64,000 nt of DNA from a bacterium (GTDB lineage: Bacteria > Bacillota > Clostridia > Oscillospirales > Acutalibacteraceae), in contig CAVJIV010000003.1 of assembly GCA_963649715.1 (NCBI GenBank), positions 75,817-139,816 on the forward strand, given 5' to 3'. The first letter of the stretch is position 1; each line of letters opens with the position of its first letter. The translations under genes were made by a program, and so were the position numbers. Positions 33,684 through 46,209 of this stretch are shown here, piece after piece. The notes beneath the pieces are model-generated. The model saw nothing but the letters and a program-made list of their open reading frames with translations, was not told the origin of the DNA and did no database searches.

Positions 33684-35030
33684 TTACAGCGTTCGCAATC
33701 CTTTCGGATAGTGATTTTTTGCGGTTTTGTTGACGGCTTTCGCTCCGCCGATCGGGCAGCCCTCAACCGTCACGGCGCACCAGCCCTTATCGTATTCACA
33801 ACCCACGGTTTCGCCGTGGATATATTTTTTTGCCTGCTCGGGAGCAAGCTCGATTTTTTGCCGGAACAAATTTCCCATTGCCGAGAAAAATTGGTGATGA
33901 GGCTTGATGTAATTTTTTTGTAGGCTTCCTATCGTAACTCCGCAGGAAAAAGCCCCGTTCGGCACAGGAAAATCCGAATCAAAATAAACAAAATTTTCCT
34001 TGTATTTTTTAACGGCTTTTTGGTTGTAGCTTATCAACGCTTCGTCAAGAAAATCGAAAATTATTTTTTGCTCGCTCTTCGGAATATCCTTGAGGGCGTT
34101 CGGCGGAAGCTCCTCGATTCCGAGGCCGTCGGTCTTTCTCATCAGCGCAATGAACTGACCCTCGCCCTTTGAAACATGCGGATAAAATCTTCGACAGCGT
34201 GAAATATTTTTTTCGTTGCAGCCGTCAAAAAATATTCCGTCCGCCGTAATTTTTTTAACGCAGTCCTTGACCTCAAGCAGCTCAAAATTTTTGTTTTCGC
34301 CGAGAAAAAGGTCAATATTTTTTTCGTTTTCTTCAAGCGAAAAAGTGCAGGTTGAATAGAGCAAAAATCCGCCGGGCTTGACGGTCGTTTTAATTTCGTC
34401 TAAAATTTCACGCTGTCGCTCGGCGCAACGCAGAACATTTTCAACGCTCCATTCCTTCTGTGCGTTCTCGTCCTTGCGGAACATTCCCTCGCCGGAGCAG
34501 GGAGCGTCAACGATAACGAGGTCAAAGGCTTCGCCGTAAAGCGACGCAATTCTTTTTGCGTCGGCGCAGGTTGTGACAACATTTTGAAAACCCATACGCT
34601 CAATGTTGCCCGTCAGCGTTTTGCACCGTGACGGGACAATCTCGTTGGAAACGAGAACACCGTTCGGGTTCTGCGCCGCAGCCTGAGTGGACTTGCCGCC
34701 GGGCGAAGCGCAAAGGTCGAGAATGTTCCAATCGGGTTGAATATCAACGCTTGCGACCGCTGCCATTGCCGACGGCTCCTGAATGTAAATCATTCCTGCG
34801 TGATGGTACGGGTGGTTGCCGATCCCGTCGCAGGAAAAATAAAAACCGTTCTCGGCATACGGAATTTTTTCACCGCCGAAAGGATTGATTTTTTCAAAAT
34901 TTTCTTCGCTGATTTTATTTGTATTAACTCTGAAAGAGCGCACGGGTTTTTCGGAATATGACGCTTCGAAAATTTCGTATTCCTCGGCCAAAAGCTCTTT
35001 CATTCTTTTTGTAAAACCAATAGGCAACAT
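33684..35030 (-). CDS. NOL1/NOP2/Sun (RsmB/RsmF-like) rRNA cytosine-C5 methyltransferase
   Basis: SAM motif DLCASPGGKSTQ; catalytic DAPCSGEGMFRK and YSTCT. ATG at 35030 (MLPIGFTKRM...). Confidence 0.85.
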   Translation of the reverse strand: MLPIGFTKRMKELLAEEYEIFEASYSEKPVRSFRVNTNKISEENFEKINPFGGEKIPYAENGFYFSCDGIGNHPYHHAGMIYIQEPSAMAAVASVDIQPDWNILDLCASPGGKSTQAAAQNPNGVLVSNEIVPSRCKTLTGNIERMGFQNVVTTCADAKRIASLYGEAFDLVIVDAPCSGEGMFRKDENAQKEWSVENVLRCAERQREILDEIKTTVKPGGFLLYSTCTFSLEENEKNIDLFLGENKNFELLEVKDCVKKITADGIFFDGCNEKNISRCRRFYPHVSKGEGQFIALMRKTDGLGIEELPPNALKDIPKSEQKIIFDFLDEALISYNQKAVKKYKENFVYFDSDFPVPNGAFSCGVTIGSLQKNYIKPHHQFFSAMGNLFRQKIELAPEQAKKYIHGETVGCEYDKGWCAVTVEGCPIGGAKAVNKTAKNHYPKGLRTL

Positions 35031-35041
35031 AAAATTCTTCC

Positions 35042-35785
35042 TTATAAATTCGCTTCGATGTTGAACATACAAATTGAAAGTGCCGCAATTGCCGCAGTTT
35101 CGGTTCTCAGTATTCTTTTACCGAGCGATACGATCTCGCCGCCGTGCGCCCTCGTTTTTTCAATTTCCTTTTCTTCGTATCCGCCCTCCGGACCGATGAA
35201 AATTCCTGCGCTCATTCCCGGCTTCAATTCGTCGATTGTTTCACGCAGTTTTTTTAAACTGTCGGCGCATTCATACGGAACAAGAAGCAGGTCGAGCGTG
35301 TCGGCATATTGCAAAGCCTCGCCGAAGGTCATGATGCTTTTAACTTCGGGAATTACGGTTCGTCCCGATTGCTTCGCTGCACTTTCGGCAATCGACTGCC
35401 AGCGTGCAAGCTTGCTTTTTTTCTTTTTGTCGTCGAGCTTGACCACACAGCGAACCATTTCAACGGGAACGATCTCCGCCGCCCCCAGCTCAACCGCCTT
35501 TTGAATGATCAGCTCCATTTTGTCCGCTTTCGGCAAGCCCTGAAAAAGAACAAGGCGAACGGGCAATTCGTTGCTTTCAAGCTGACCCTTTTCAATATCG
35601 GCAACAACGCTTTCGCCGTCGAATTCACGAATCGAGCAGCAATAGCTTGCCCCGTTGCCGTCGTTGGCAATGAATTTTTCGCCCGGCTTCATTCGCAGAA
35701 CATTTTTTATATGATTGAAGTCACCGCCGGTGATAACGACCTGCGAATCGGTAATGCTTTCGGGCGGAACAAAGAAATGATACAT
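35042..35785 (-). CDS. rsmE: 16S rRNA (uracil1498-N3)-methyltransferase
   Basis: MYHFFVPPESI...; C-terminal SPOUT knot IFIGPEGGYEEKEI...VSLGKRILRTETA. Confidence 0.9.
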   Translation of the reverse strand: MYHFFVPPESITDSQVVITGGDFNHIKNVLRMKPGEKFIANDGNGASYCCSIREFDGESVVADIEKGQLESNELPVRLVLFQGLPKADKMELIIQKAVELGAAEIVPVEMVRCVVKLDDKKKKSKLARWQSIAESAAKQSGRTVIPEVKSIMTFGEALQYADTLDLLLVPYECADSLKKLRETIDELKPGMSAGIFIGPEGGYEEKEIEKTRAHGGEIVSLGKRILRTETAAIAALSICMFNIEANL

Positions 35786-35865
35786 AACCATCGCTCCAAA
35801 AAAGTTTTCTATCAATTATATCATTTCATTATAATAATTGCAAACAATAAAATGAAAGAATAATC

Positions 35866-35893
35866 TTGACTTTTTTTCGTTCTATGCTATAAT
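35866..35893 (+). promoter_or_regulatory. Promoter of tRNA-Leu (TTGACT-16-TATAAT)
   Basis: TTGACT at 35866-35871 and TATAAT at 35888-35893, about 35 nt before the tRNA 5' end. Confidence 0.6.
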
Positions 35894-35928
35894 CTATACG
35901 GTCGGGGAACTACCTAACCGCAAAATAT

Positions 35929-36015
35929 GCAGGAGTGGCGGAATCGGCAGACGCGCTAGATTCAGGTTCTAGTGAATGCAAGTTCATGAGGGTTCAAGTC
36001 CCTTCTCCTGCACCA
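35929..36015 (+). tRNA. tRNA-Leu (anticodon CAG), class II with long variable arm, encoded CCA
   Basis: GCAGGAGTGGCGGAATCGGCAGACGCGCTAGATTCAGGTTCTAGTGAATGCAAGTTCATGAGGGTTCAAGTCCCTTCTCCTGCACCA. The acceptor stem is GCAGGAG/CTCCTGC, the anticodon stem-loop is CTAGA-TTCAGGT-TCTAG, and the T-loop is GGTTCAAGTCC. Confidence 0.95.
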
Positions 36016-36017
36016 GA

Positions 36018-36045
36018 AAGAGTCGCTTGGGCGGCTCTTTTTTTA
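36018..36045 (+). terminator. Intrinsic terminator after the tRNA
   Basis: AAGAGTCGCttggGCGGCTCTT followed by TTTTT. Confidence 0.75.
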
Positions 36046-36147
36046 TTTGTGGTTGGGTGAAGCGAGGAGGAGAAAAAAGAAAAAATAACGCAGAAAAGGA
36101 CAGCAAAGAAAACTATGCATTTTTTGAGAATTATATAGGTTTTAAGC

Positions 36148-36176
36148 TTTACATTTACGATTAAATATGTTATATT
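36148..36176 (+). promoter_or_regulatory. Candidate promoter of the kinase/STAS/MATE/NRPS operon (TTTACA-17-TATATT)
   Basis: TTTACA at 36148-36153, a 17-nt spacer, then TATATT at 36171-36176. A CACTTCacaatagGGAAGTG hairpin follows in the roughly 85-nt leader. Confidence 0.45.
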
Positions 36177-36255
36177 ATCATTAAATTAGCACTTCACAAT
36201 AGGGAAGTGTTGTCATTTGCCGTAGGAAATCAAACCGGTATCCTGAAAGCGAGGG

Positions 36256-36669
36256 ATGATTATGTGCTCTCTTTGCGTTGAGGCGATAAAGGAAAACCTG
36301 AGCGATGTTATCGATTTTGTCACGAAGCAGCTCGGCGAAGACGCTGACGAAAAAATCCGTTTTGAATTTGAGCTGATTTGCGAGGAGATTTTCGTCAACA
36401 TTTGCAGCTACGCTTACGGCGAAAAAATCGGCGAAGCAGAAATCAAAATCGACAAATCGCCGGACGGAATCGTTATAAAATTTATTGACGGCGGCAAGGA
36501 ATTTGATCCGCTTAAAAAGCCGAATCCCGACATTGAAGCTCCGCTTGAGGATCGATGCAGCGGGGGTCTTGGGATATTTATCACAAAGAAATTATCCGAC
36601 CGGCTTCTGTATAAAAGAGAGGACGGCAGGAATGTTCTGACGGTTATAAAGGCAACGCCGCACAGGTGA
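36256..36669 (+). CDS. RsbW/SpoIIAB-like anti-sigma-factor-type serine kinase (HATPase_c)
   Basis: 137 aa, or 135 aa if the second ATG at 36262 is used, which fits the GAGGGA RBS better. N box EEIFVN, G1 IDGGKEFDP and G2 SGGLGIFITKKL are all intact. Confidence 0.8.
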   Translation: MIMCSLCVEAIKENLSDVIDFVTKQLGEDADEKIRFEFELICEEIFVNICSYAYGEKIGEAEIKIDKSPDGIVIKFIDGGKEFDPLKKPNPDIEAPLEDRCSGGLGIFITKKLSDRLLYKREDGRNVLTVIKATPHR

Positions 36670-36736
36670 GCCTTTGCTGACCGCCGAACGAAATACAGCA
36701 AATTTTCGCCAATTCAGCTCACTGGAGGTAAAATAT

Positions 36737-37045
36737 ATGGAAATCAACAAAGCTATCAGCAACCAAAATGTTATCATCACGCTTAAGGGTCGCCTTGACA
36801 CAATGACGGCTCAGCAGCTTATCGGTGAGATAAGCGACATTGATTATGACGAGGTGGAAACCGTAACGCTCAATTTTAAAGACCTTGAGTATATTTCAAG
36901 CTCGGGACTGAGAGTTATTCTCTCGCTTTACAAAAACCTCAAAAGCAACGGCGGCAGCCTGAAAATCGTCAATGTCAACAATATGATAATGGAGCTTTTC
37001 TCGATGACGGGAATGCGTGATTTTCTTGATATCGAGCAGGCATAA
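36737..37045 (+). CDS. STAS-domain anti-sigma-factor antagonist (SpoIIAA/RsbV-like)
   Basis: MEINKAISNQNVIITLKGRLDTMTAQQL...FKDLEYISSSGLRVILSLYK, which carries the conserved phosphorylatable serine context. ATG at 36737 after GGAGG. Confidence 0.88.
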   Translation: MEINKAISNQNVIITLKGRLDTMTAQQLIGEISDIDYDEVETVTLNFKDLEYISSSGLRVILSLYKNLKSNGGSLKIVNVNNMIMELFSMTGMRDFLDIEQA

Positions 37046-37059
37046 GCCAAGGAGTTAAA

Positions 37060-38817
37060 ATGAGCAGTACGACACTTGGCAGGAACGCCGTGACCGTCAA
37101 CAAAAAATATGCGGAATATTTTCTTCCGACGGTTCTGACGGCTATGGCAACAAATATTGCAACGATCGTTGATTCGATCATTGCCGGAAATCTTCTCGGA
37201 CAAAGCGCACTTGCGGCAATCAGCCTTATGTCGCCGATTTCTCAGCTTTATTTTTCAATCACGATTCTTTTCGGGCTGGGAGCGTCCTCTATAATTTCTT
37301 TTGCAAAAGGAAAGCGAGACGACAAGCAGGCGGATAGGGTTTTCACTTCGACCTTTATCGTGCTCGTTGCGCTCAGCGTGATTTTTATCGCAGTTCAGCT
37401 GCCGCTGGCGGATACGATATGCTCCCTCCTGACGCAGGACGCAGAGCTGAAATCATTGCTGTATCAATACTATGTTCCTTTCATAATAGGAACACCGGTC
37501 TATCTTTTGCTTATGTGCTCCGTTTATTTTGTCAGGGCGGACGCAAGACCCAAGTTTGCTTCAAACATTGTGATTATCGCCAATGCTGTAAAGCTGGGAC
37601 TGGACTATCTTTTTATGGGCGCATTGAAGCTCGGCATTGCCGGCTCGTCGATTGCAACCGTGCTGGGATATATCGTCGGCTTTGTGATAATGTCAACGCA
37701 CTTTATAACGAAAAAAAGCACGCTTCATTTTGATTTTTCAATTCTCGGAAATCCGCCCGAATTTTTCAAATCTCTCGGCAGAATGACGACGATTGGAGTT
37801 TCGGGTGCGCTCGGAACGATGCTCATAGCGGTCAAAATGCTGTTTTTGAATACAATTATTCAGAGCGCGGGCGGAAGCGCAGGCATGGTTTCCTATTCCG
37901 TATGCTCGTCAAGCCAAATCTTTATGTCGATGTTTATCACGGGCGCAAGCCAAACGATGATACCGATCATCGGAGTTTGCCTCGGCGAAAAGGACTATGA
38001 CGGAGTTCGCTATGCGTTCCGCAAGGCGGCAAGGGTGCTTGCCGTTTCGAGCGTTGTGATCATGCTGTTCCTGTGCGCAGCTCCCGAACCGATAATCAAA
38101 TTTTTCGGAATAAACTCTCCCGAGGATATTGCAAACACGGTTCCGGCGCTGAGGATCAATGCGATATCCTTCCCCGGAATGGCGTTCTCATTCCTGCTGC
38201 TTTATTACTATATGGCAACGCAAAAAAGAGCGATTTCAACCGCAATTTCGGTTATAAACGGAATAGTTATAATCATACCGTCGGCGTTGATTCTTTCAAA
38301 ATTTTTCGGTATCACGGGCGTTTGGCTTTCGCTTGTTGTGTCGCAGTTCGGAACGCTCGTCGTCGTTTATTTCATCGACCTCGTCGAAAAGAAAAAATCC
38401 GGTGGAAAATATAAAAGCTTCTATCTTCTTGAAGAAACGGAGGATAACGAGATCCTTTCGCTTTCGTTTAAGGGAACAAAGGAAAATGCGGCAGGCGTTT
38501 CGCTCTATCTTTCCTCTTTCCTTGCGAAGAACGGAATTGAGGAGCTTCGTGCGAACAGAATTGCGGTCGCCGTTGAAGAGATGGCAGCCGACTGCGCAGA
38601 AAGAATGAAAAACAAAAAGAAAGACGCCGACATTGATATAAGAATTTTTTCCGACAGGGACGGAACCGTTATTTCGGTTCGTGATAACGGCGAGGAGTTC
38701 AATCCGCTCGACGGTGAAAAGCAGGAGCCGAATCCGCTCAGCGTCGTGAAAGCGATTTCGGAAAAAGTGGAATATTCGCGAGTAATCGGTTTTAACCGTA
38801 CAATAATTAAACTTTAA
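37060..38817 (+). CDS. MATE family efflux transporter fused to a C-terminal degenerate RsbW-like (HATPase_c-type) domain
   Basis: Residues 1 to about 440 form a 12-TM MATE protein (FLPTVLTAMATNIATIVDSIIAGNLLG...). Residues from about 455 to 585 align with the 36256 kinase (AVEEMAADCAERM / ISVRDNGEEFNPL / SRVIGFNRTIIKL). It is one uninterrupted ORF. Confidence 0.85.
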   Translation: MSSTTLGRNAVTVNKKYAEYFLPTVLTAMATNIATIVDSIIAGNLLGQSALAAISLMSPISQLYFSITILFGLGASSIISFAKGKRDDKQADRVFTSTFIVLVALSVIFIAVQLPLADTICSLLTQDAELKSLLYQYYVPFIIGTPVYLLLMCSVYFVRADARPKFASNIVIIANAVKLGLDYLFMGALKLGIAGSSIATVLGYIVGFVIMSTHFITKKSTLHFDFSILGNPPEFFKSLGRMTTIGVSGALGTMLIAVKMLFLNTIIQSAGGSAGMVSYSVCSSSQIFMSMFITGASQTMIPIIGVCLGEKDYDGVRYAFRKAARVLAVSSVVIMLFLCAAPEPIIKFFGINSPEDIANTVPALRINAISFPGMAFSFLLLYYYMATQKRAISTAISVINGIVIIIPSALILSKFFGITGVWLSLVVSQFGTLVVVYFIDLVEKKKSGGKYKSFYLLEETEDNEILSLSFKGTKENAAGVSLYLSSFLAKNGIEELRANRIAVAVEEMAADCAERMKNKKKDADIDIRIFSDRDGTVISVRDNGEEFNPLDGEKQEPNPLSVVKAISEKVEYSRVIGFNRTIIKL

Positions 38818-38865
38818 GCAGTCGCCGAACAGACGGGGACTGCATAACGAACGGAGTTGACCATA

Positions 38866-41800
38866 ATGGAAAATTTGACTGAAATGCTTGACGCCTGCAA
38901 GGAAGAAAAAAGGGAGCTTTATCCGCTCACGCCCAGTCAGATGGGAATTTATCTTTCGTGTATGCACAATCCGCAGGGCACTATGTACAATATTGCCTGC
39001 TCTTTCCGTTTTGATAAGGGAGAGATCGACCTTGACAGATTGAAGATGTCTGTCAAAAAAGCGGTTGACAATCACCCCATTACCAAGGCTTTTATAGATA
39101 ATTCCACGGGAAGTCCGATGATGAAGCTTCGCAGCAGCATTGATATTGACATTCCCGTTATGCAGGTTGACGACCTTGAAAAGGCTGCCGAGGATTTCGT
39201 AATACCGTTTGACCTCGAAAATGATGTTCTTGTTCGTTTTGTCGTTTTTGAATGCGGCGACAAAGACATGTTTGTCATGAATCTTCACCATATTATTTTT
39301 GACGGCACATCGGTTACGGTATTTTGCGACGATATTTCGCTCGCCTACGACGGAAAAGAGCTTCCGCCGGAAAAATTCACGCAGCTTGAGCTGGCTGTTT
39401 TTGAAGAAAAGCTTGAAAGCACCGAGACTTACCGAGAGTCAAAGGAATATTACGACAATATTTTCTCCGCCGTTGAAGAAAAATCTGAAATTACGGAGGA
39501 TTTTGCCGAAAAGCCCGAGCTTGAGGACAAGCCTGCCGCCCTCTTTGAGGTGACGACGGAGGGCAGATTTTCCGTTGACGCCGTGCGCAGTTTTGCACGG
39601 GAGCTCAATATAACCCCCTATACCGTCTTTCTCGGCGCATATGAATACGCAGTCGCAAAGTTCACCAATCAGAACGAGGCGACCGTGTGCACCGTTACCC
39701 ACGGCAGATTCGACAAGAGGCTTGCAAACACCGTCGGAATGATGGTTCGCACTCTTCCGATGCACGCAGATATTGACGAGGAAACCTCCGTCTGCGATTT
39801 CCTTAAAAATGTGCGTAAGAGCATAACCGAAACCGTCAAAAACGATTATTACCCGTTCATGAAGCTTGCGGCGGACTATGACCTTTCCGCCGACATTATG
39901 ATGGCTTATCAGGGCGGCAATATATTGAATTCGATCAAGCTCGGCGATCGATCCTTTAAAATAGGGCTTTTGCCGTTCAAGAGCGCCCTTGCAAAAATAA
40001 ATGTTATGGTGTTTGAATCGGGCGAAAATTTCACCCTGCGCTTTGATTACAGAAGCGATTTGTTCAGGGAGGAAACCATCCGCTCGTTTGCCGATTCATT
40101 CATAACGATAATCGAACAGTTCCTTGAAAAAGAAAAGCTTTGCGAGGTCGAGCTTGTGAGCAAGCAGCAGCTTGCCTTGCTTGACAGCTTCAACAAAACC
40201 GAAGTCCCGTATGACGAGAGCAAGACGATTGTCGATTTGTTTGAGGAGAGCTGCAAAAAAGCTCCCGAAAATATCGCCGTTGTTTATAAAGAAAAGAAGC
40301 TTACCTATGCCGAGGTAGACGAAAGCACGGATCGCATTGCCGGCTTTGTTCATTCAAAGGGTATCGGCAAAGAGGATGTTGTTGCGATCCTCATTCCGAG
40401 ATGCGAATATATGCCGATCGCAGCGCTCGGCGTTATGAAGGCGGGAGCTGCTTATCAGCCCCTTGACCCGTCATATCCGACCGAAAGATTGCAATTCATG
40501 GTCAAGGACGCAAACGCAAAGCTCTTGATTGCGGACGAGGGTCTGCTCGAGCTTCTGCCGAATTACGAGGGCGAGATTCTTCTCACAAAGGATATTCCGA
40601 GCCTGCCGAAGACGATTCCCATGTCCGAGAGGCCGTCACCGGAGGATTTGTTTATCCTTATCTACACCTCCGGCTCAACGGGCACTCCCAAGGGAGCTAT
40701 GCTTGAGCATCGGAATTTGCACGCAATGTGCAGAACCCATATAAGAAATTATGATATTACTGCTGACAGCATTTGCGCATCATATGCCAGCTACGGCTTC
40801 GACGCCTGCCTTATGGAGATGTACTGCCCCCTTGTTGTCGGTGCGCCGCTCCATATTATTGATGAGGATATCAGGCTCGACCTTGTTAAGCTGAACCGAT
40901 ATTTTGAGGATAACGGTATCACCCAGGTCTTTATGACAACGCAGGTTGCAAGACAGTTCGCAACCGAGATCGAAAACCATTCGCTCAAGCATCTCATAAC
41001 CGGCGGAGAAAGGCTTGTTCCGCTTGAGCCGCCGAAGAATTTTGAGCTTGTCAATATTTACGGTCCGACGGAGTGTATAGTTTATATCACATCGCAGAGG
41101 GTCGATAAGCTCTACGACAGAGTCCCAATCGGAAAAGCGGTTGATAATGTCAAGCTTTACATAATCGATAAATACAACAGGCGGCTTCCCGTCGGCGCAT
41201 TGGGCGAGCTTTGCGCTTCGGGCAATCAGGTTTCAAGAGGATATCTCAACCGTCCCGAGCAGACCGAAAAGGTATACGGAAAGAACCCCTACTGCGATGA
41301 AAAGGGCTACGAAAGATTTTATCACACGGGCGATATCGTTCGCTTTACCGATGACGGCAAGGTGGACTATATCGGCAGAAATGACGGTCAGGTAAAGATC
41401 AGAGGCTTCCGTATCGAGCTTTCCGAGGTCGATAAGATTATCCGCAATTACGATGGAATTACCAATTGCGCCGTGGTTGCCAAGGCTCTTGAGGGCGGCG
41501 GACAGTGCATTAACGCATACATTGTTGCCGACAGAGAAATCGACATTCAAAAGCTCAACGAGTTTATTCTGGAGCACAAGCCGCCGTATATGGTTCCCGC
41601 CGCCACGATGCAAATCGACGCAATTCCGCTCAATGTAAACGGCAAGCTCGACAGGCGCAAGCTTCCCGAAATCAAGACGGAAGCCGCCAAGAAGAAAAAT
41701 TCCGCACCGAGAGAGCTTACCTTCCTCGAAAAGAAAATTTCGGGCATTGTGGAAAAGGTCATCGGACACAATGATTTTGATGTTTCCGAAAATCTCATCA

Positions 41801-44800
41801 ACGCCGGCATGACCTCACTTTCCGTCATCAAGCTCGCAGTTGAGCTTAACAAGGCTTTTGGATTTGAGTCGCAGGTTAAAAAGATGATGAAGGGCTGCTC
41901 GATTCTTTCGATAGAGGATGAGCTTCAGGAGTTCATTTTCAGCGGCGCGATGAAGACACAAGCCGCCGAGGCAAAAGAGAAGAAAGAGCGCAAGGCTTTT
42001 TATCCGCTCTCAAAAACTCAGCTCGGCGTGTATATCGACTGCATGAAAAATCCGTACAGCACGATTTATAATATCCCGTCCGTTATCACTTTTTCAAAAT
42101 CAACCGATTCGCAAAAGCTTGCCGATTGCATTGCCCGAATCATCAAGGCTCACCCATACATCATGACGGGGCTTACGCTTGAGAACGACGAGATCGAGCA
42201 GAAATATGTTGACTCGGCAGAGCCGGACATCTCCGTAAAGAAGCTTACGGAGGAGCAGCTTGAAGCATACAAAAAAGATTTTGTGAAGCCGCATAATCTG
42301 ATGAAATCGCCGTTGTTCAGAATTTCCGTTGTCGAAACGGAAAAGGCTGTTTATCTGCTTTGGGATTTCCACCACATTATCTTTGACGGAGCGTCCGTCG
42401 CCTTGTTCCTTGAGCAGCTCAAGACCTTGTATGAGGGCGGCGAGATCGAGCCTGAGGATTACACATACTTTGACTATGTTGAAGATGAAACAAAGGCGGA
42501 AAACGGAGAAAGCTACAAAAATGCGGAAAAATTCTTCGACGATATGATGGAGGATTTTGAATCCGCAAGCGAAATTACGGCAGACCTCCGAGGCCATGCG
42601 ACGGACGGCAGACTTGCTTCGCAGGCAGTTCCCGTGGATATGGCAAGGGTAGAAAAATTCTGCTCTGAAAACGGAGTTACGCCGGCTCACCTTTTCCTTG
42701 CCGGAACATTCTATGCCGTTTCAAGATTTGTGAATAGCAGGAATGTATATATAAGCACAATCAGCAACGGCAGGAGCGATATACGGCTCACAAACTGCTT
42801 CGGTATGTTTGTAAAAACTCTTGCGCTCGGAATCGAGGTTGAGGATATAACCTCACTTGACTTTGTCCGAAAGAGCAAGGCGGTTTTCACGGGGGCGATA
42901 GAGAACGAGATTTATCCCTATACCGAGCTTTGCACAAAATACGGCTATGCGCCGAACATCATGTACGAATATCAGCTCGGCGTTGTTGACGAAATGAAAA
43001 TAAACGGCGAAGCGGTTCTCTGCGATTACCTTGAAATGGACACGGCAAAGTTCAAAACGGCCGTTCATATCGAGGAGCACGAGGGCAAGCCGAGCGTTGT
43101 GGTTCAGTATAACGATGCGCTTTACAGCGGCGAGATTATGAAAACGCTTGCAAAATCCGTTCTCTGCGCCGTTGAGCATATAATCGAAAACCCGAACGGA
43201 AAAATCAGAAAGGTTTCGCTTCTTGATGACGATGCGCTGGCGCAGCTTGACCGCTTCAAATCCAGCGAGATTGTTCCCGTCGAAACAAAGATACTTCATA
43301 AAATGATAGAGCAGCAGGTTGCCAAAACTCCCGAAAGGATTGCATTGGTTGCCTGCGACGGCAAGCTGACATACAAAGAGCTTGACCGCCTTGCAAATAT
43401 CACGGCAAACTCCCTCATCGAAAGGGGAATCAAAAAGGGCGGAAAAGTTCTCCTGTTGCTCAGCAGAACCTCAAGGTTCTTCACCTCGCTTCTCGGCGTT
43501 CTCAAGGCTGGCGGCGCATTCATTCCGTCGTGTCCGGAATATCCGAAAGAGCGAATAGAAAGCATTATTGAGGATAGCAACGCCGACTTCGTTATCACGG
43601 AGGGCGAGCTGCTCGACAGATACGAAAGAACCGTTGACGCTGCGGAGCTTCTTTCCGGCACGAACGACAGCAACCCGGGCGTTGAGGTTCAGCCCGAGGA
43701 TCTTGCATATCTTATCTATACCTCAGGATCAACCGGCAAGCCGAAGGGCGTTATGCTCCGTCATATAGGCATCGCAAACTACCTTGCATACAGCAAGGCG
43801 AATATTCAGGGCAAGACGGTTATTGAAAGCTGCCATACATACGGCTCGGTAACAACCATCAGCTTTGACCTGTCGCTCAAGGAAACCTTGCTTTCGTTCT
43901 GCCACGGACTTACGCTCGCCTTTGCAAGCGACGATCAAACGCTCAATCCCGTTGCGCTTGCAAAGTTCTTTAAAGAAAACAATGTTGATGCGTTCAACTC
44001 TACGCCGTCACGACTTTTGCAGTATATGGAGCTTGAAGAGTTCACACAGGCAATGGCAAACTGCAAGGCGATACTTTCCGGCGGCGAAAAATATCCAGAC
44101 AAGCTGTTGAAGATCCTGCGGGAAAAAACAAACGCAACTATCATCAACACATACGGTCCGACGGAGATCACCGTTTCCTCAAACGCAAAAGATCTCACAA
44201 ATGCGGATGCTATCACGGTCGGCAGACCGCTGCGCAATTACACGGAGTATATCGTTGACGCGGACGATAATCTTCTTCCGGTCGGAGTTGTCGGCGAGCT
44301 TCTCATTCAGGGCTGCGGCGTGGCGCTCGGCTATATGAATCTTCCCGAACAGACGGCGAAAGCCTTCGTTGAATTCAAGGGCGAACGCACATACCGCTCC
44401 GGCGACTATGCAAAATGGACGGCAGACGGCGAGGTTGTTATTCTCGGCAGAACAGACAATCAGGTTAAACTGAGAGGACTGCGCATTGAGCTTGGCGAGA
44501 TTGAGAAATGTCTGACGGCTCTTGACGGAATCAAAACCGGAATTGCGCTTATAAGAAAGGTCGGCAAAACCGACGCCATCTGCGTTTACTACACGGCGGA
44601 AAGGCAGCTTGACCCGGAGGACATCAAGGCTCAGCTCAAGAAAACCCTTACGGATTATATGGTTCCGAGCGCATATGTTCAGCTTGACGCAATGCCGCTC
44701 ACCCCGAACGGCAAGGTCAACACAAAGGCTCTCCCCGAACCGAAGCTTGACAAGGCGGGAAGCGGACAGCTTCCGAAGAACGAGCTTGAAAAGACATTCT

Positions 44801-46209
44801 GCGATATTTTTGCGGAAATTCTTGAGCTTGACACCGTGTTTGCGGACGAGAATTTCTTTGACATCGGCGGCACATCGCTTACGGCAACCAGAATTGTAAT
44901 TTCTGCGTCGAAGAAAAACATCGAGCTTGCATATAACGAGGTCTTTGAGAATCCGACGCCGCAGGCTCTTGCAAGGTTCATCAGTAAGGACGATTCGGGC
45001 AAGAATGATATTGATGACATTGAAAATCTCTCGGATTACGACTACACAAACATCAACGAGCTTCTAAAGAAGAACAACATCGACTCGTTCAGAAACGGAG
45101 AGCGTCAGGAGCTTGGCAATGTTCTGCTGACAGGACCGGCAGGCTTCCTCGGAGTGCATATTCTCTATGAGCTGCTTCATAAATATAACGGCAAGGTTTA
45201 TTGCCTGATTCGAGACAAGAACAATAACCCTGCCGAAAGTCGATTGAATTCGATCTACTATTATTATTTTGAGGAGAGTCTCAAGGAAAAATATCCCGAC
45301 AGAGTTTTTGCTGCGGACGGCGATGTAACTAACCGTGCTTGCTTTGACGAGCTTCTTGATAAGGACATCAACACGGTTATCAACTGTGCCGCAAATGTTA
45401 AGCATTTCTCAAAGGGCACTGATATTGAGGATGTTAACCTGTACGGAACTCTCAATGTGCTCGATTTCTGCAAGGCGGCAAACGCACGGCTTGTCCATGT
45501 TTCAACGATGAGCATCGGAGGAATGTTTGTCGGCGAGAAAGGCCCTGTCGAAAGGCTCAGGGAGGATCAGCTTTATTTCGGTCAGTATGAAGGCTCAAAA
45601 TACACGCTGTCAAAGTTCCTTGCCGAAAGGGCGATACTTGAAGAGGCGTCGAACGGCTTCAATGCAAAGATAATGCGCGTCGGCACGCTTGCTGCACGAA
45701 ACAGCGACGGCGAATACCAGATAAACTTCACCACCAACACATTCATGGGCAGACTGAAATCCACACTGCTCATCGGCAAATATCCGTATGAGGCGATGGA
45801 AATGCCGTTTGAGCTTTCGCCGGTAGATTTTGTTGCAAAGGCGATACTTCTGCTTGCGCAAGCTCCGAAGGAGTGCACGGTGTTCCACCCGTTCAACAAC
45901 CATACCCTCATTATGGGCGATCTTTATACCGAGATGAACAAGATAGGGCTTCATTCGGAGGGTGCGGAGCACGACGAATATATGGCTGCGCTCGATAGGG
46001 CGGAGCAGGATCCCGAAAAGGCAAAGATTTTGTCAAGCATGATTGCGTATCAGAATATGGCGCACGGACAGAAAACATTCACCGTCGCCAAGAGCAACGC
46101 ATATACAATGCAGGTTCTCTACAGAATGGGATTCATGTGGCCGGTTACATCGTTCGACTATATGAAACGATTCATCAACGCTTTGAGAGGTCTTGGCTTC
46201 TTTGATTGA
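38866..46209 (+). CDS. Bimodular nonribosomal peptide synthetase, C-A-T-C-A-T-R (terminal thioester reductase)
   Basis: 2447 aa from the ATG at 38866. Approximate nt spans: C1 38910-40170 (HHIIFDGTS at ~39286); A1 40230-41680 (LIYTSGSTGTPKG, FDACLME, NIYGPTE, YHTGD, GRNDGQVKIRGFRIEL, NGKLDR); T1 41720-41920 (NAGMTSLSV); C2 41990-43250 (HHIIFDGAS); A2 43300-44745 (LIYTSGSTGKPKG, FDLSLKE, NTYGPTE, YRSGD, GRTDNQVKLRGLRIEL, NGKVNTK); T2 44790-44990 (IGGTSLTA); R 45115-46200 (LLTGPAGFLG Rossmann, YxxxK as YTLSK). Confidence 0.97.
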   Translation: MENLTEMLDACKEEKRELYPLTPSQMGIYLSCMHNPQGTMYNIACSFRFDKGEIDLDRLKMSVKKAVDNHPITKAFIDNSTGSPMMKLRSSIDIDIPVMQVDDLEKAAEDFVIPFDLENDVLVRFVVFECGDKDMFVMNLHHIIFDGTSVTVFCDDISLAYDGKELPPEKFTQLELAVFEEKLESTETYRESKEYYDNIFSAVEEKSEITEDFAEKPELEDKPAALFEVTTEGRFSVDAVRSFARELNITPYTVFLGAYEYAVAKFTNQNEATVCTVTHGRFDKRLANTVGMMVRTLPMHADIDEETSVCDFLKNVRKSITETVKNDYYPFMKLAADYDLSADIMMAYQGGNILNSIKLGDRSFKIGLLPFKSALAKINVMVFESGENFTLRFDYRSDLFREETIRSFADSFITIIEQFLEKEKLCEVELVSKQQLALLDSFNKTEVPYDESKTIVDLFEESCKKAPENIAVVYKEKKLTYAEVDESTDRIAGFVHSKGIGKEDVVAILIPRCEYMPIAALGVMKAGAAYQPLDPSYPTERLQFMVKDANAKLLIADEGLLELLPNYEGEILLTKDIPSLPKTIPMSERPSPEDLFILIYTSGSTGTPKGAMLEHRNLHAMCRTHIRNYDITADSICASYASYGFDACLMEMYCPLVVGAPLHIIDEDIRLDLVKLNRYFEDNGITQVFMTTQVARQFATEIENHSLKHLITGGERLVPLEPPKNFELVNIYGPTECIVYITSQRVDKLYDRVPIGKAVDNVKLYIIDKYNRRLPVGALGELCASGNQVSRGYLNRPEQTEKVYGKNPYCDEKGYERFYHTGDIVRFTDDGKVDYIGRNDGQVKIRGFRIELSEVDKIIRNYDGITNCAVVAKALEGGGQCINAYIVADREIDIQKLNEFILEHKPPYMVPAATMQIDAIPLNVNGKLDRRKLPEIKTEAAKKKNSAPRELTFLEKKISGIVEKVIGHNDFDVSENLINAGMTSLSVIKLAVELNKAFGFESQVKKMMKGCSILSIEDELQEFIFSGAMKTQAAEAKEKKERKAFYPLSKTQLGVYIDCMKNPYSTIYNIPSVITFSKSTDSQKLADCIARIIKAHPYIMTGLTLENDEIEQKYVDSAEPDISVKKLTEEQLEAYKKDFVKPHNLMKSPLFRISVVETEKAVYLLWDFHHIIFDGASVALFLEQLKTLYEGGEIEPEDYTYFDYVEDETKAENGESYKNAEKFFDDMMEDFESASEITADLRGHATDGRLASQAVPVDMARVEKFCSENGVTPAHLFLAGTFYAVSRFVNSRNVYISTISNGRSDIRLTNCFGMFVKTLALGIEVEDITSLDFVRKSKAVFTGAIENEIYPYTELCTKYGYAPNIMYEYQLGVVDEMKINGEAVLCDYLEMDTAKFKTAVHIEEHEGKPSVVVQYNDALYSGEIMKTLAKSVLCAVEHIIENPNGKIRKVSLLDDDALAQLDRFKSSEIVPVETKILHKMIEQQVAKTPERIALVACDGKLTYKELDRLANITANSLIERGIKKGGKVLLLLSRTSRFFTSLLGVLKAGGAFIPSCPEYPKERIESIIEDSNADFVITEGELLDRYERTVDAAELLSGTNDSNPGVEVQPEDLAYLIYTSGSTGKPKGVMLRHIGIANYLAYSKANIQGKTVIESCHTYGSVTTISFDLSLKETLLSFCHGLTLAFASDDQTLNPVALAKFFKENNVDAFNSTPSRLLQYMELEEFTQAMANCKAILSGGEKYPDKLLKILREKTNATIINTYGPTEITVSSNAKDLTNADAITVGRPLRNYTEYIVDADDNLLPVGVVGELLIQGCGVALGYMNLPEQTAKAFVEFKGERTYRSGDYAKWTADGEVVILGRTDNQVKLRGLRIELGEIEKCLTALDGIKTGIALIRKVGKTDAICVYYTAERQLDPEDIKAQLKKTLTDYMVPSAYVQLDAMPLTPNGKVNTKALPEPKLDKAGSGQLPKNELEKTFCDIFAEILELDTVFADENFFDIGGTSLTATRIVISASKKNIELAYNEVFENPTPQALARFISKDDSGKNDIDDIENLSDYDYTNINELLKKNNIDSFRNGERQELGNVLLTGPAGFLGVHILYELLHKYNGKVYCLIRDKNNNPAESRLNSIYYYYFEESLKEKYPDRVFAADGDVTNRACFDELLDKDINTVINCAANVKHFSKGTDIEDVNLYGTLNVLDFCKAANARLVHVSTMSIGGMFVGEKGPVERLREDQLYFGQYEGSKYTLSKFLAERAILEEASNGFNAKIMRVGTLAARNSDGEYQINFTTNTFMGRLKSTLLIGKYPYEAMEMPFELSPVDFVAKAILLLAQAPKECTVFHPFNNHTLIMGDLYTEMNKIGLHSEGAEHDEYMAALDRAEQDPEKAKILSSMIAYQNMAHGQKTFTVAKSNAYTMQVLYRMGFMWPVTSFDYMKRFINALRGLGFFD

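Follow-up and report, generated by a model that had tools for sequence, protein, structure and literature searches.

The window analysed here is a 64,000-nucleotide (64-kb) stretch of contig CAVJIV010000003.1 (assembly GCA_963649715.1, positions 75,817 to 139,816), from a bacterium of the Acutalibacteraceae (Clostridia, Oscillospirales), and the coordinates below are those of this window. It contains an open reading frame (ORF; 37060-38817) for a protein of 585 amino acids in which a MATE exporter is fused to a C-terminal domain, here called the tail, that resembles the serine kinases RsbW and SpoIIAB. A preliminary description of this DNA regarded the end of the ORF (38380-38817, corresponding to residues 441-585 plus the stop codon) as a likely pseudokinase docking domain that has lost its ATP-binding motifs. 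Judged from its sequence, the tail is a pseudokinase relative of these enzymes and not a kinase, as it fails in two defining catalytic features, namely the N-box asparagine and the G2 lid.

The exporter gene belongs to a string of four genes, all on the plus strand. The string begins with a stand-alone RsbW-like serine kinase of 137 amino acids (36256..36669), in which the N, G1 and G2 boxes are intact and which matches PF13581 from profile position 5 to 127 of 127 (E 1.5e-18). It is followed by a single-domain STAS protein of the anti-sigma-antagonist type (36734..37045; TIGR00377, E 6e-22; PF01740, E 8e-18), whose phosphorylatable serine lies in the motif EYIS-S-[SA]-GLR and is kept in every STAS protein aligned from the related loci described below. 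The exporter gene starts 14 nucleotides (nt) after the STAS gene, and 39 nt separate it from the gene for a non-ribosomal peptide synthetase (NRPS; 38857..46209) of 2450 amino acids. The latter is bimodular with a terminal reductase, in the order C-A-T-C-A-T-R (Pfam Condensation, AMP-binding and PP-binding, two each, and NAD_binding_4), and is the cargo-producing enzyme of the cluster. Upstream of the string are a tRNA gene (35929-36012; Rfam, 53 bits), a terminator-like hairpin immediately after it (36015-36042), and a promoter-like site on the plus strand (36148..36176), a candidate resting on a consensus scan in which TTTACA-17-TATATT gave 10 of 12 matches together with a TG extension. Because the gaps among the four genes are short, and because the tRNA and hairpin are followed by this promoter-like site, the kinase, STAS, exporter and NRPS genes likely form a single operon. 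An Rfam search for a riboswitch upstream of the operon returned the tRNA as its sole match.

The exporter core comprises residues 1-439 (37060..38376, plus strand), with 12 transmembrane (TM) helices. It matches PF01554 in two stretches (E 8e-33) and TIGR00797 with 163.8 bits (E 5.6e-48), above the cut-off of 147.4 bits, and the AlphaFold2 (AF2) model of the full-length protein, with a predicted TM-score (pTM) of 0.83, is all-helical through residue 446. The core is joined to the tail by a juxtamembrane linker (residues 440-462; 38377..38445, plus strand) with the conserved motif KKSxGKYxxFYLLE. The basic part of this motif, KKSxGKY, contains Ser447 (residues 446-452, window 38395-38415); it occurs across the wider clade of the window, is not universal in the distant members of the family, and may have a structural role or serve as a phosphorylation site. 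The DNA of the linker is A-rich (38386-38420, gaaaagaaaaaatccggtggaaaatataaaag), and seven metagenomic homologs (P0004, P0005, P0008, P0010, P0012, P0014 and P0015) have frameshifts or deletions that fall within or close to the linker and the beginning of the tail and may be sequencing errors or true variable alleles.

Fold and motifs of the exporter tail

Pfam, BLASTP, hhalign and Foldseek agree in assigning residues 463-585 (38446..38814, plus strand) to the fold of RsbW and SpoIIAB. The tail matches PF13581 (HATPase_c_2, the RsbW/SpoIIAB family) with an E value of 7.2e-10 over profile positions 4-89 of 127, so that the match ends before the G2 and lid part of the profile. The kinase encoded in the window aligns with the tail by BLASTP at 27% identity (E 3e-9), and hhalign, applied to 16 cluster-linked kinases and 29 tails, gave a probability of 98.5% (E 2.3e-15). 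The similarity between kinase and tail is far beyond chance. Sequence-only searches of the Protein Data Bank (PDB) with the tail or its profile yielded only marginal matches to RsbW (E 0.03-0.3), and a fold search was therefore needed. The AF2 model of the isolated tail has a mean predicted local distance difference test score (pLDDT) of 84.3 and a pTM of 0.76, and shows the expected order of elements (strand-helix-helix-strand-strand-loop-helix-strand-strand), with a low-confidence remnant of the lid. Its Foldseek neighbours in the PDB are SpoIIAB (1tid, 1th8 and 1l0o), RsbW (6m36 and 6m37) and UsfX (8ih8 and 8jzt), with E values from 2.4e-7, for SpoIIAB, to 1e-4 and TM-scores of 0.6-0.73. 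The tail is thereby shown to belong structurally to the RsbW/SpoIIAB branch of the GHKL superfamily, with its Bergerat ATP-binding fold.

Four independent methods (BLASTP, HMMER, hhalign and hmmalign to a joint model) gave the same register of the motifs, and this is the register that had been drawn by eye in the preliminary description, whose eight quoted peptides were all found in the stand-alone kinase and the tail. By hhalign, E44, N48, D78 and G80 of the kinase correspond to E507, D511, D542 and G544 of the tail. The degenerate N box (AVAVEEMAADCAERM, 38566..38604) keeps E507 and has Asp511 (codon 38590-38592) in place of the Mg-ATP asparagine, and in the HMMER alignment to Bacillus subtilis RsbW (PDB 6m36) Asp511 again falls on the N-box asparagine. 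The turn of the G1 box, VRDNGEEFN (D542, N543 and G544; 38677..38703), is retained, D542-N-G544 lying on D78-G-G80 of the kinase in the pattern DxG. The kinase GGLG (residues 103-106) falls on EP--NP of the tail, and the remnant of the ATP lid (residues 549-561, PLDGEKQEPNPLS, 38704..38742) is without a glycine-rich G2 box. The segment from the G1 proline to the conserved tyrosine is 22 residues long in the tail, as against 33 in the kinase, and the lid is thus 11 residues shorter; its remnant is modelled with a pLDDT of about 56, falling below 50 in residues 553-555. The C-terminal strands (38785..38814) are retained, and their motif LGFN is matched in the alignment with Asn126, a residue that does not vary among the kinases. 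All these motif features of the window protein (all on the plus strand) had been anticipated in the preliminary description, and no alignment placed an asparagine and a glycine-rich lid in register.

Compared with the SpoIIAB and RsbW serine kinases (PF13581; 1th8, 1tid, 1l0o and 6m36), the tail has the same Bergerat-type fold and the same order of secondary structures. The N-box helix, the G1 turn and the C-terminal strands align, and a STAS protein with a phosphorylatable serine is encoded next door. It differs in that the Mg-ATP asparagine is replaced, the G2 box is missing and the lid is shorter, and also in being a C-terminal extension of a 12-TM MATE protein, with no sigma factor as neighbour. 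From these motifs, the last 123 residues of the exporter are probably a GHKL domain of the RsbW/SpoIIAB type without phosphotransfer catalysis.

Drift and selection in the fusion family

A first homolog search returned short proteins only, and an assembly or frameshift artefact was considered as the origin of the fusion. This was rejected, as a whole-protein search found more than 110 full-length fusions (565-590 amino acids, 44-99% identity) and a genome scan found 73 loci; the short proteins came from contig fragments and from alleles with nonsense or frameshift changes. When 1.84 billion representatives, which are clusters at 50% identity, were searched with a profile, 2045 matched, 503 of them with E values of 1e-10 or less. 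Most members are 565-610 amino acids long, with the tail at about residues 435-590. The closest loci (L004-L007; 87-96% protein identity) have the same order of STAS, MATE and NRPS genes. The metagenome-assembled genomes (MAGs) in which they lie are entitled Bacteroides faecis, Coriobacteriaceae, Eggerthellaceae and Bacteroidaceae; as all other relatives belong to Ruminococcus or the Acutalibacteraceae, mistakes in binning or labelling are the probable source of these titles. Among named isolates, Ruminococcus bromii ATCC 27255 and Ruminococcoides intestinale come closest, with fusion proteins 86% identical to that of the window.

Conservation was examined in 53 orthologous fusions with mutual identities below 90%. 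The position of the N-box glutamate (507) is occupied by E in 25, G in 18, D in four and H in three of them, that of the N-box asparagine (511) by D in 16, N in 14, E and Y in five each, and Q and F in three each, and that of the G1 aspartate (542) by D in 30, S in 14 and N in four. None of the 53 tails has a GxG lid. In the 16 soluble kinases from the same clusters, E44, N48, D78, G80 and G103-G104-L105-G106 are invariant down to 26% identity. Aspartate at the position of the N-box asparagine is found in the window and in L004-L007 and L013. The asparagine is kept in R. bromii ATCC 27255 and in those related to it (L001, L009-L012 and L014), and Ruminococcoides intestinale has serine. Across 75 representatives of the whole family, the N-box glutamate is retained in 73, the asparagine in 56 and the G1 aspartate in 68, the GGLG box is never present, and the median lid length is 26 residues versus 33 in the kinases. 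On this comparison of sequences, the defect common to the whole family is the missing GGLG box with the short lid, and loss of the N box and G1 is not general. All those checks proposed in the preliminary description that were run favoured its interpretation; as to the conservation of the degenerate motifs across orthologous fusions, this holds for the lid, but the change from asparagine to aspartate is lineage-specific. The N box and G1 are intact in distant clades (Syntrophomonadaceae, Desulfovibrio-type bacteria, Treponema and Chitinispirillales), the tails of the Ruminococcus/Acutalibacteraceae clade that includes the window are partly degenerate, and a rabbit-gut clade has lost nearly all motifs and the entire lid. 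Read in this way, the tails of the fusion family form a natural series that begins with intact motifs and ends in full degeneracy.

Ratios of nonsynonymous to synonymous substitution rates (dN/dS), from unsaturated pairs, are 0.05-0.11 for the tail versus 0.06-0.11 for the TM domain. This shows that the tail is not decaying, being under purifying selection equal to that on the transporter domain. Invariant or near-invariant positions without a catalytic role are S447, L456, S467, S469, Y483, D526, R528, N543, G544, G577 and N579. In the 53 orthologs S447 and L456 are invariant, and G449, Y451, Y455, N543, G544 and N579 are at least 90% conserved; G577, in the C-terminal strands, is invariant as well. 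The conserved residues specific to the tail comprise S467, S469, Y483, D524, D526, R528 and the LGFN motif.

Some variants of the fusion should also be mentioned. A nonsense change from TCA to TAA in TM helix 12 of the exporter (IP*ALIL; L001:5940-5950, and also L002 and L003; the equivalent site in the window is at about 38280) occurs in R. bromii-like metagenome contigs of three samples, and leaves a separate tail ORF of 161 amino acids. The protein cluster that corresponds to it (P0001) has 87 member sequences, and split fusions occur in L009 and L073 as well. In two proteins the tail is followed by a further HATPase_c_2 domain, which makes them triple fusions; this second domain has fully intact N, G1 and G2 motifs in P0182 (786 amino acids) and is degenerate in P0244 (754 amino acids). 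In a cluster of a Treponema MAG, an ABC-transporter ATPase (L068:1776-2873) has a weak C-terminal HATPase_c_2-like stretch (E 0.0018), and RsbW-like tails may exist on other types of transporter.

Genes next to the fusion in 76 loci

All ORFs of 76 loci were clustered into families. A gene for a bimodular NRPS of about 2450 amino acids with a terminal reductase adjoins the fusion gene in 69 of the 76, downstream in close relatives and upstream in distant ones. The MATE-tail fusion is a signature gene of one family of NRPS clusters, that of the ruminopeptin type. According to a review (PMC12327764, citing Schneider & Balskus 2018), the rup NRPS of R. bromii makes the dipeptide aldehyde ruminopeptin; the same review cites Guo et al. 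2017 for related work on pyrazinones. The rup and other dipeptide-aldehyde clusters of gut Clostridia share with the present locus the bimodular C-A-T-C-A-T-R synthetase; the papers on them, as cited in that review, deal with product chemistry, whereas our subject is the tail of the exporter.

Apart from the NRPS only four families recur, namely the STAS protein (48 loci), the soluble kinase (22), a PP2C phosphatase or PP2C-kinase fusion (15) and a phosphopantetheinyl transferase (PPTase). The families that recur in the 76 loci include no sigma factor, although a cognate sigma factor is usually encoded together with an anti-sigma factor. In about 28 loci of the clade of the window, the STAS gene lies 13-40 nt upstream of the fusion gene in the same orientation. 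The soluble kinase gene is less fixed than the STAS gene, which in this clade always adjoins the fusion gene, and is missing in six close loci that keep both STAS and fusion genes (L006, L012, L024, L025, L018 and L041). One of these, L006, encodes a fusion protein 91% identical to that of the window and has other genes upstream. A comparison of L006:1-9660 with window positions 35000-36733 revealed that the homology begins at the STAS gene, which means that the cluster occupies different genomic contexts in close relatives. In L007, the kinase gene is on the opposite strand and is paired with a second STAS gene. A second, shorter STAS paralogue (of a 98-amino-acid type) is encoded downstream of the NRPS gene in three loci (L007:10890-11614, L023:9622-9915 and L051:12069-12425), and one STAS protein may serve the tail and another the kinase.

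The PP2C phosphatases of these clusters are of the SpoIIE type and, whether alone or fused to a kinase, always have a polytopic membrane or HAMP N-terminus. Fusions of PP2C and kinase with membrane sensor regions are found in L015, L016, L044 and L075. In the phosphatases at L013:5613-7553, L015:381-2843 and L065:12577-14514, the polytopic membrane part at the N-terminus is long and gives weak QueT-like or rhodopsin-like matches. The membrane phosphatases are candidate signal-input proteins. STAS, kinase and PP2C genes also adjoin the fusion gene in phylogenetically distant MAGs (L065, L075 and L068). Another neighbour, a conserved protein of about 455 amino acids with no Pfam match, is encoded next to the fusion or NRPS gene at L064:11757-13121 and in nine other distant loci.

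A putative partner switch at the exporter

Two components of a partner switch, a STAS protein with a phosphorylatable serine and a kinase of the RsbW type whose N, G1 and G2 motifs are intact, are encoded directly upstream of the exporter; the third, a PP2C phosphatase, occurs as a separate protein or in fusion with a kinase in 15 related loci. From motifs and gene order, the tail most likely serves a sigma-independent partner switch, dedicated to the NRPS cluster, as its membrane-anchored receptor, a reading to which we give an even chance of being correct. Under this proposal, the unphosphorylated STAS protein would bind the tail and change the activity of the exporter, the soluble kinase would phosphorylate the STAS serine and so release the STAS protein, and a membrane SpoIIE-type PP2C, encoded in the clusters of relatives and not in the window, would reverse the phosphorylation. 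The output would be export of the NRPS product, a dipeptide aldehyde of the ruminopeptin type, and not transcription; binding could either activate or inhibit the exporter. More tentatively, and with rather less than even confidence, we suggest that a complete sigma-free switch, made up of a PP2C sensor, the kinase, the STAS protein and a pseudokinase receptor on the pump, gates the transporter post-translationally and times the release of the aldehyde.

Each part of this proposal has some counterpart in known systems. The nearest functional analogues of the tail would be the kinase-negative anti-sigma factors UsfX and RsbW1. UsfX of Mycobacterium tuberculosis and RsbW1 and RsbW3 of M. smegmatis (PMC7693655; 8ih8 and 8jzt) have the RsbW fold, show no kinase activity and act by binding only, whereas the STAS protein is phosphorylated by RsbW2 of M. 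smegmatis, in which the N, G1 and G2 motifs are present. This division of labour between kinase-negative RsbW1 and RsbW3 and the kinase-only RsbW2 has been demonstrated (PMC7693655) and is like that proposed between the cluster kinase and the tail, but RsbW1, RsbW3 and UsfX are soluble and control SigF, whereas in our case the presumably inactive paralog is built into a transporter and the switch would involve no sigma factor. The nearest architectural analogue would be the inverse case of the SLC26/SulP anion transporters, which are likewise secondary transporters with a cytoplasmic C-terminal module from the anti-sigma partner-switching toolkit. These, however, carry the STAS domain (the antagonist) in cis, whereas here the RsbW-like (anti-sigma) domain is on the transporter and the STAS protein is separate. 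In the sigma-independent switches SypE/SypA of Vibrio fischeri, BtrU/W/V of Bordetella, HsbR/HsbA of Pseudomonas aeruginosa and HenR/All4160 of Anabaena, an RsbW-like kinase phosphorylates and a PP2C dephosphorylates the STAS protein, and the output is non-transcriptional (biofilm formation, type III secretion or glycosyltransferase activity, as compared with a transporter here). SypE and HsbR carry PP2C-kinase fusions, as do some of our loci. Outputs of partner switches other than sigma factors are known (10.64898/2026.04.08.717354; PMC8256260).

Several observations weigh against a STAS-binding receptor. Some close loci have no STAS gene (L032, and L048, L049 and L052 of the rabbit clade), and about a dozen distant loci, including L055, L056, L058, L064, L067 and L074, have the fusion and NRPS genes with no STAS or kinase gene within about 10 kb. 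The window itself has no PP2C gene, and a search of its 64 kb found no second STAS or kinase gene and no sigma factor either. In complexes of SpoIIAB and RsbW (entries 1th8, 1tid and 6m36) the STAS protein sits above the nucleotide pocket and the lid. This lid, part of the STAS docking site, is truncated in the tail, so that an interface between STAS and tail could be no simple copy of the one in SpoIIAB or RsbW. The suggestion of the preliminary description that the elements contacting the STAS partner persist is accordingly plausible in part, the lid beneath the STAS protein being the element that was lost. Its further suggestion of a division of labour between a soluble active kinase and a membrane-tethered inactive paralog has the mycobacterial precedent, but several close relatives lack the kinase gene. 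The linker has a pLDDT of about 50 in the model of the isolated tail versus 78-85 in the full-length model, which is compatible with a defined arrangement of tail and transporter; the rise could also stem from a deeper alignment and not from packing. Covariation of evolutionary rates (mirror-tree) was considered as evidence of binding, since the correlation between STAS and tail was 0.96, with a partial correlation of 0.80 given the TM domain, above all 23 control segments of equal length. A rate-matched control made of the 123 most variable TM columns, however, gave 0.952 and a partial correlation of 0.74, and covariation was discarded as specific evidence.

Among the other explanations, the one that survives best, though it is unlikely, is that the tail forms the inactive half of a SpoIIAB-like dimer with the soluble kinase and anchors it at the exporter, the STAS protein engaging the active protomer only. 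SpoIIAB and RsbW are obligate dimers (entries 1l0o and 1th8), which counts in its favour, and the triple fusion P0182, joining MATE, tail and an intact second HATPase_c_2 domain in one chain, is a link of the Rosetta-stone kind. RsbW3 of M. smegmatis, moreover, interacts with RsbW1, and a heterodimer was proposed by the authors (PMC7693655). Such a dimer is difficult to reconcile with the six close loci that lack the kinase gene despite having STAS and fusion genes, and with L007, whose kinase gene runs in the opposite direction and has its own second STAS gene. Dimerization with the kinase and binding of STAS to the tail are compatible and not mutually exclusive.

It is improbable that the tail is instead a docking site for the NRPS or some other partner in the biosynthesis, by which the reactive aldehyde would be passed straight to the pump. 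This idea is kept alive by the distant loci with fusion and NRPS but no STAS or kinase gene; no feature of the fusion is better conserved, in all phyla, than its adjacency to the NRPS gene. The partial rate correlation between tail and NRPS given the TM domain is nevertheless only 0.19, and docking would leave unexplained why STAS, kinase and PP2C genes recur. To our knowledge there is no precedent for GHKL-fold domains that bind NRPS modules, which also counts against docking.

We regard as highly improbable a tail that still binds nucleotide, as an ATP/ADP sensor or a weak kinase, with Asp511 replacing the N-box asparagine in metal binding. The tail of the window does keep E507, D542 and G544, R. 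bromii proper has the asparagine, and most of the 75 family representatives retain the glutamate, the asparagine and the G1 aspartate together with a remnant glycine. Within the clade of the window, however, these positions are unconstrained, glutamate giving way to glycine in 18 and Asp542 to serine in 14 of the 53 orthologs, and the tail lacks a G2 box and has the shortened lid. In EnvZ, the substitution N347D, an asparagine-to-aspartate change at the same position, renders the kinase inactive.

A membrane-tethered, kinase-negative anti-sigma factor, sequestering a sigma factor encoded elsewhere and coupling the state of the exporter to transcription, would agree with the fact that the top structural neighbours of the tail are all anti-sigma factors and that kinase-negative examples such as UsfX and RsbW1 exist; we give it very little credence, as no sigma-factor family recurs across the 76 loci and the phyla with the system share no known alternative sigma factor. 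Finally, degenerate motifs and the alleles splitting MATE core from tail in some metagenomes (L001-L003, L009 and L073) might suggest that the tail has no function and is what is left of a formerly active fused kinase in decay. This is contradicted by the selection analysis and by the conservation of length and of many non-catalytic positions over hundreds of clusters, and can practically be dismissed.

Returning to the tail as a STAS receptor, in the literature searched we found no description of a MATE-RsbW-like fusion, of a transporter-fused pseudokinase receptor or of a MATE exporter controlled by a partner switch. Public records name the fusion proteins only "MATE family efflux transporter", which leaves an annotation gap for a large family (at least 503 clusters at 50% identity with E values of 1e-10 or less). 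Dipeptide aldehydes, including ruminopeptin and the precursors of pyrazinones, are reported second-hand (PMC12327764) to be protease inhibitors encoded by abundant human gut bacteria. Since, on the same second-hand authority, the NRPS family next to the exporter makes such compounds, the system is of medical relevance. The series from motif-intact to degenerate tails offers material for studying the transition from GHKL kinase to pseudokinase. A conserved domain on an exporter, predicted to be catalytically dead and accompanied by a toolkit of STAS, kinase and PP2C genes, provides a concrete hypothesis for the post-translational control of export. If it is true, a transporter would join the short list of partner-switching outputs other than sigma factors, and this would be the first partner switch with a MATE exporter as its direct output, the mirror image of the STAS domain of SLC26/SulP; gut Clostridia and many other anaerobes would time the release of reactive, protease-inhibiting dipeptide aldehydes in this way.

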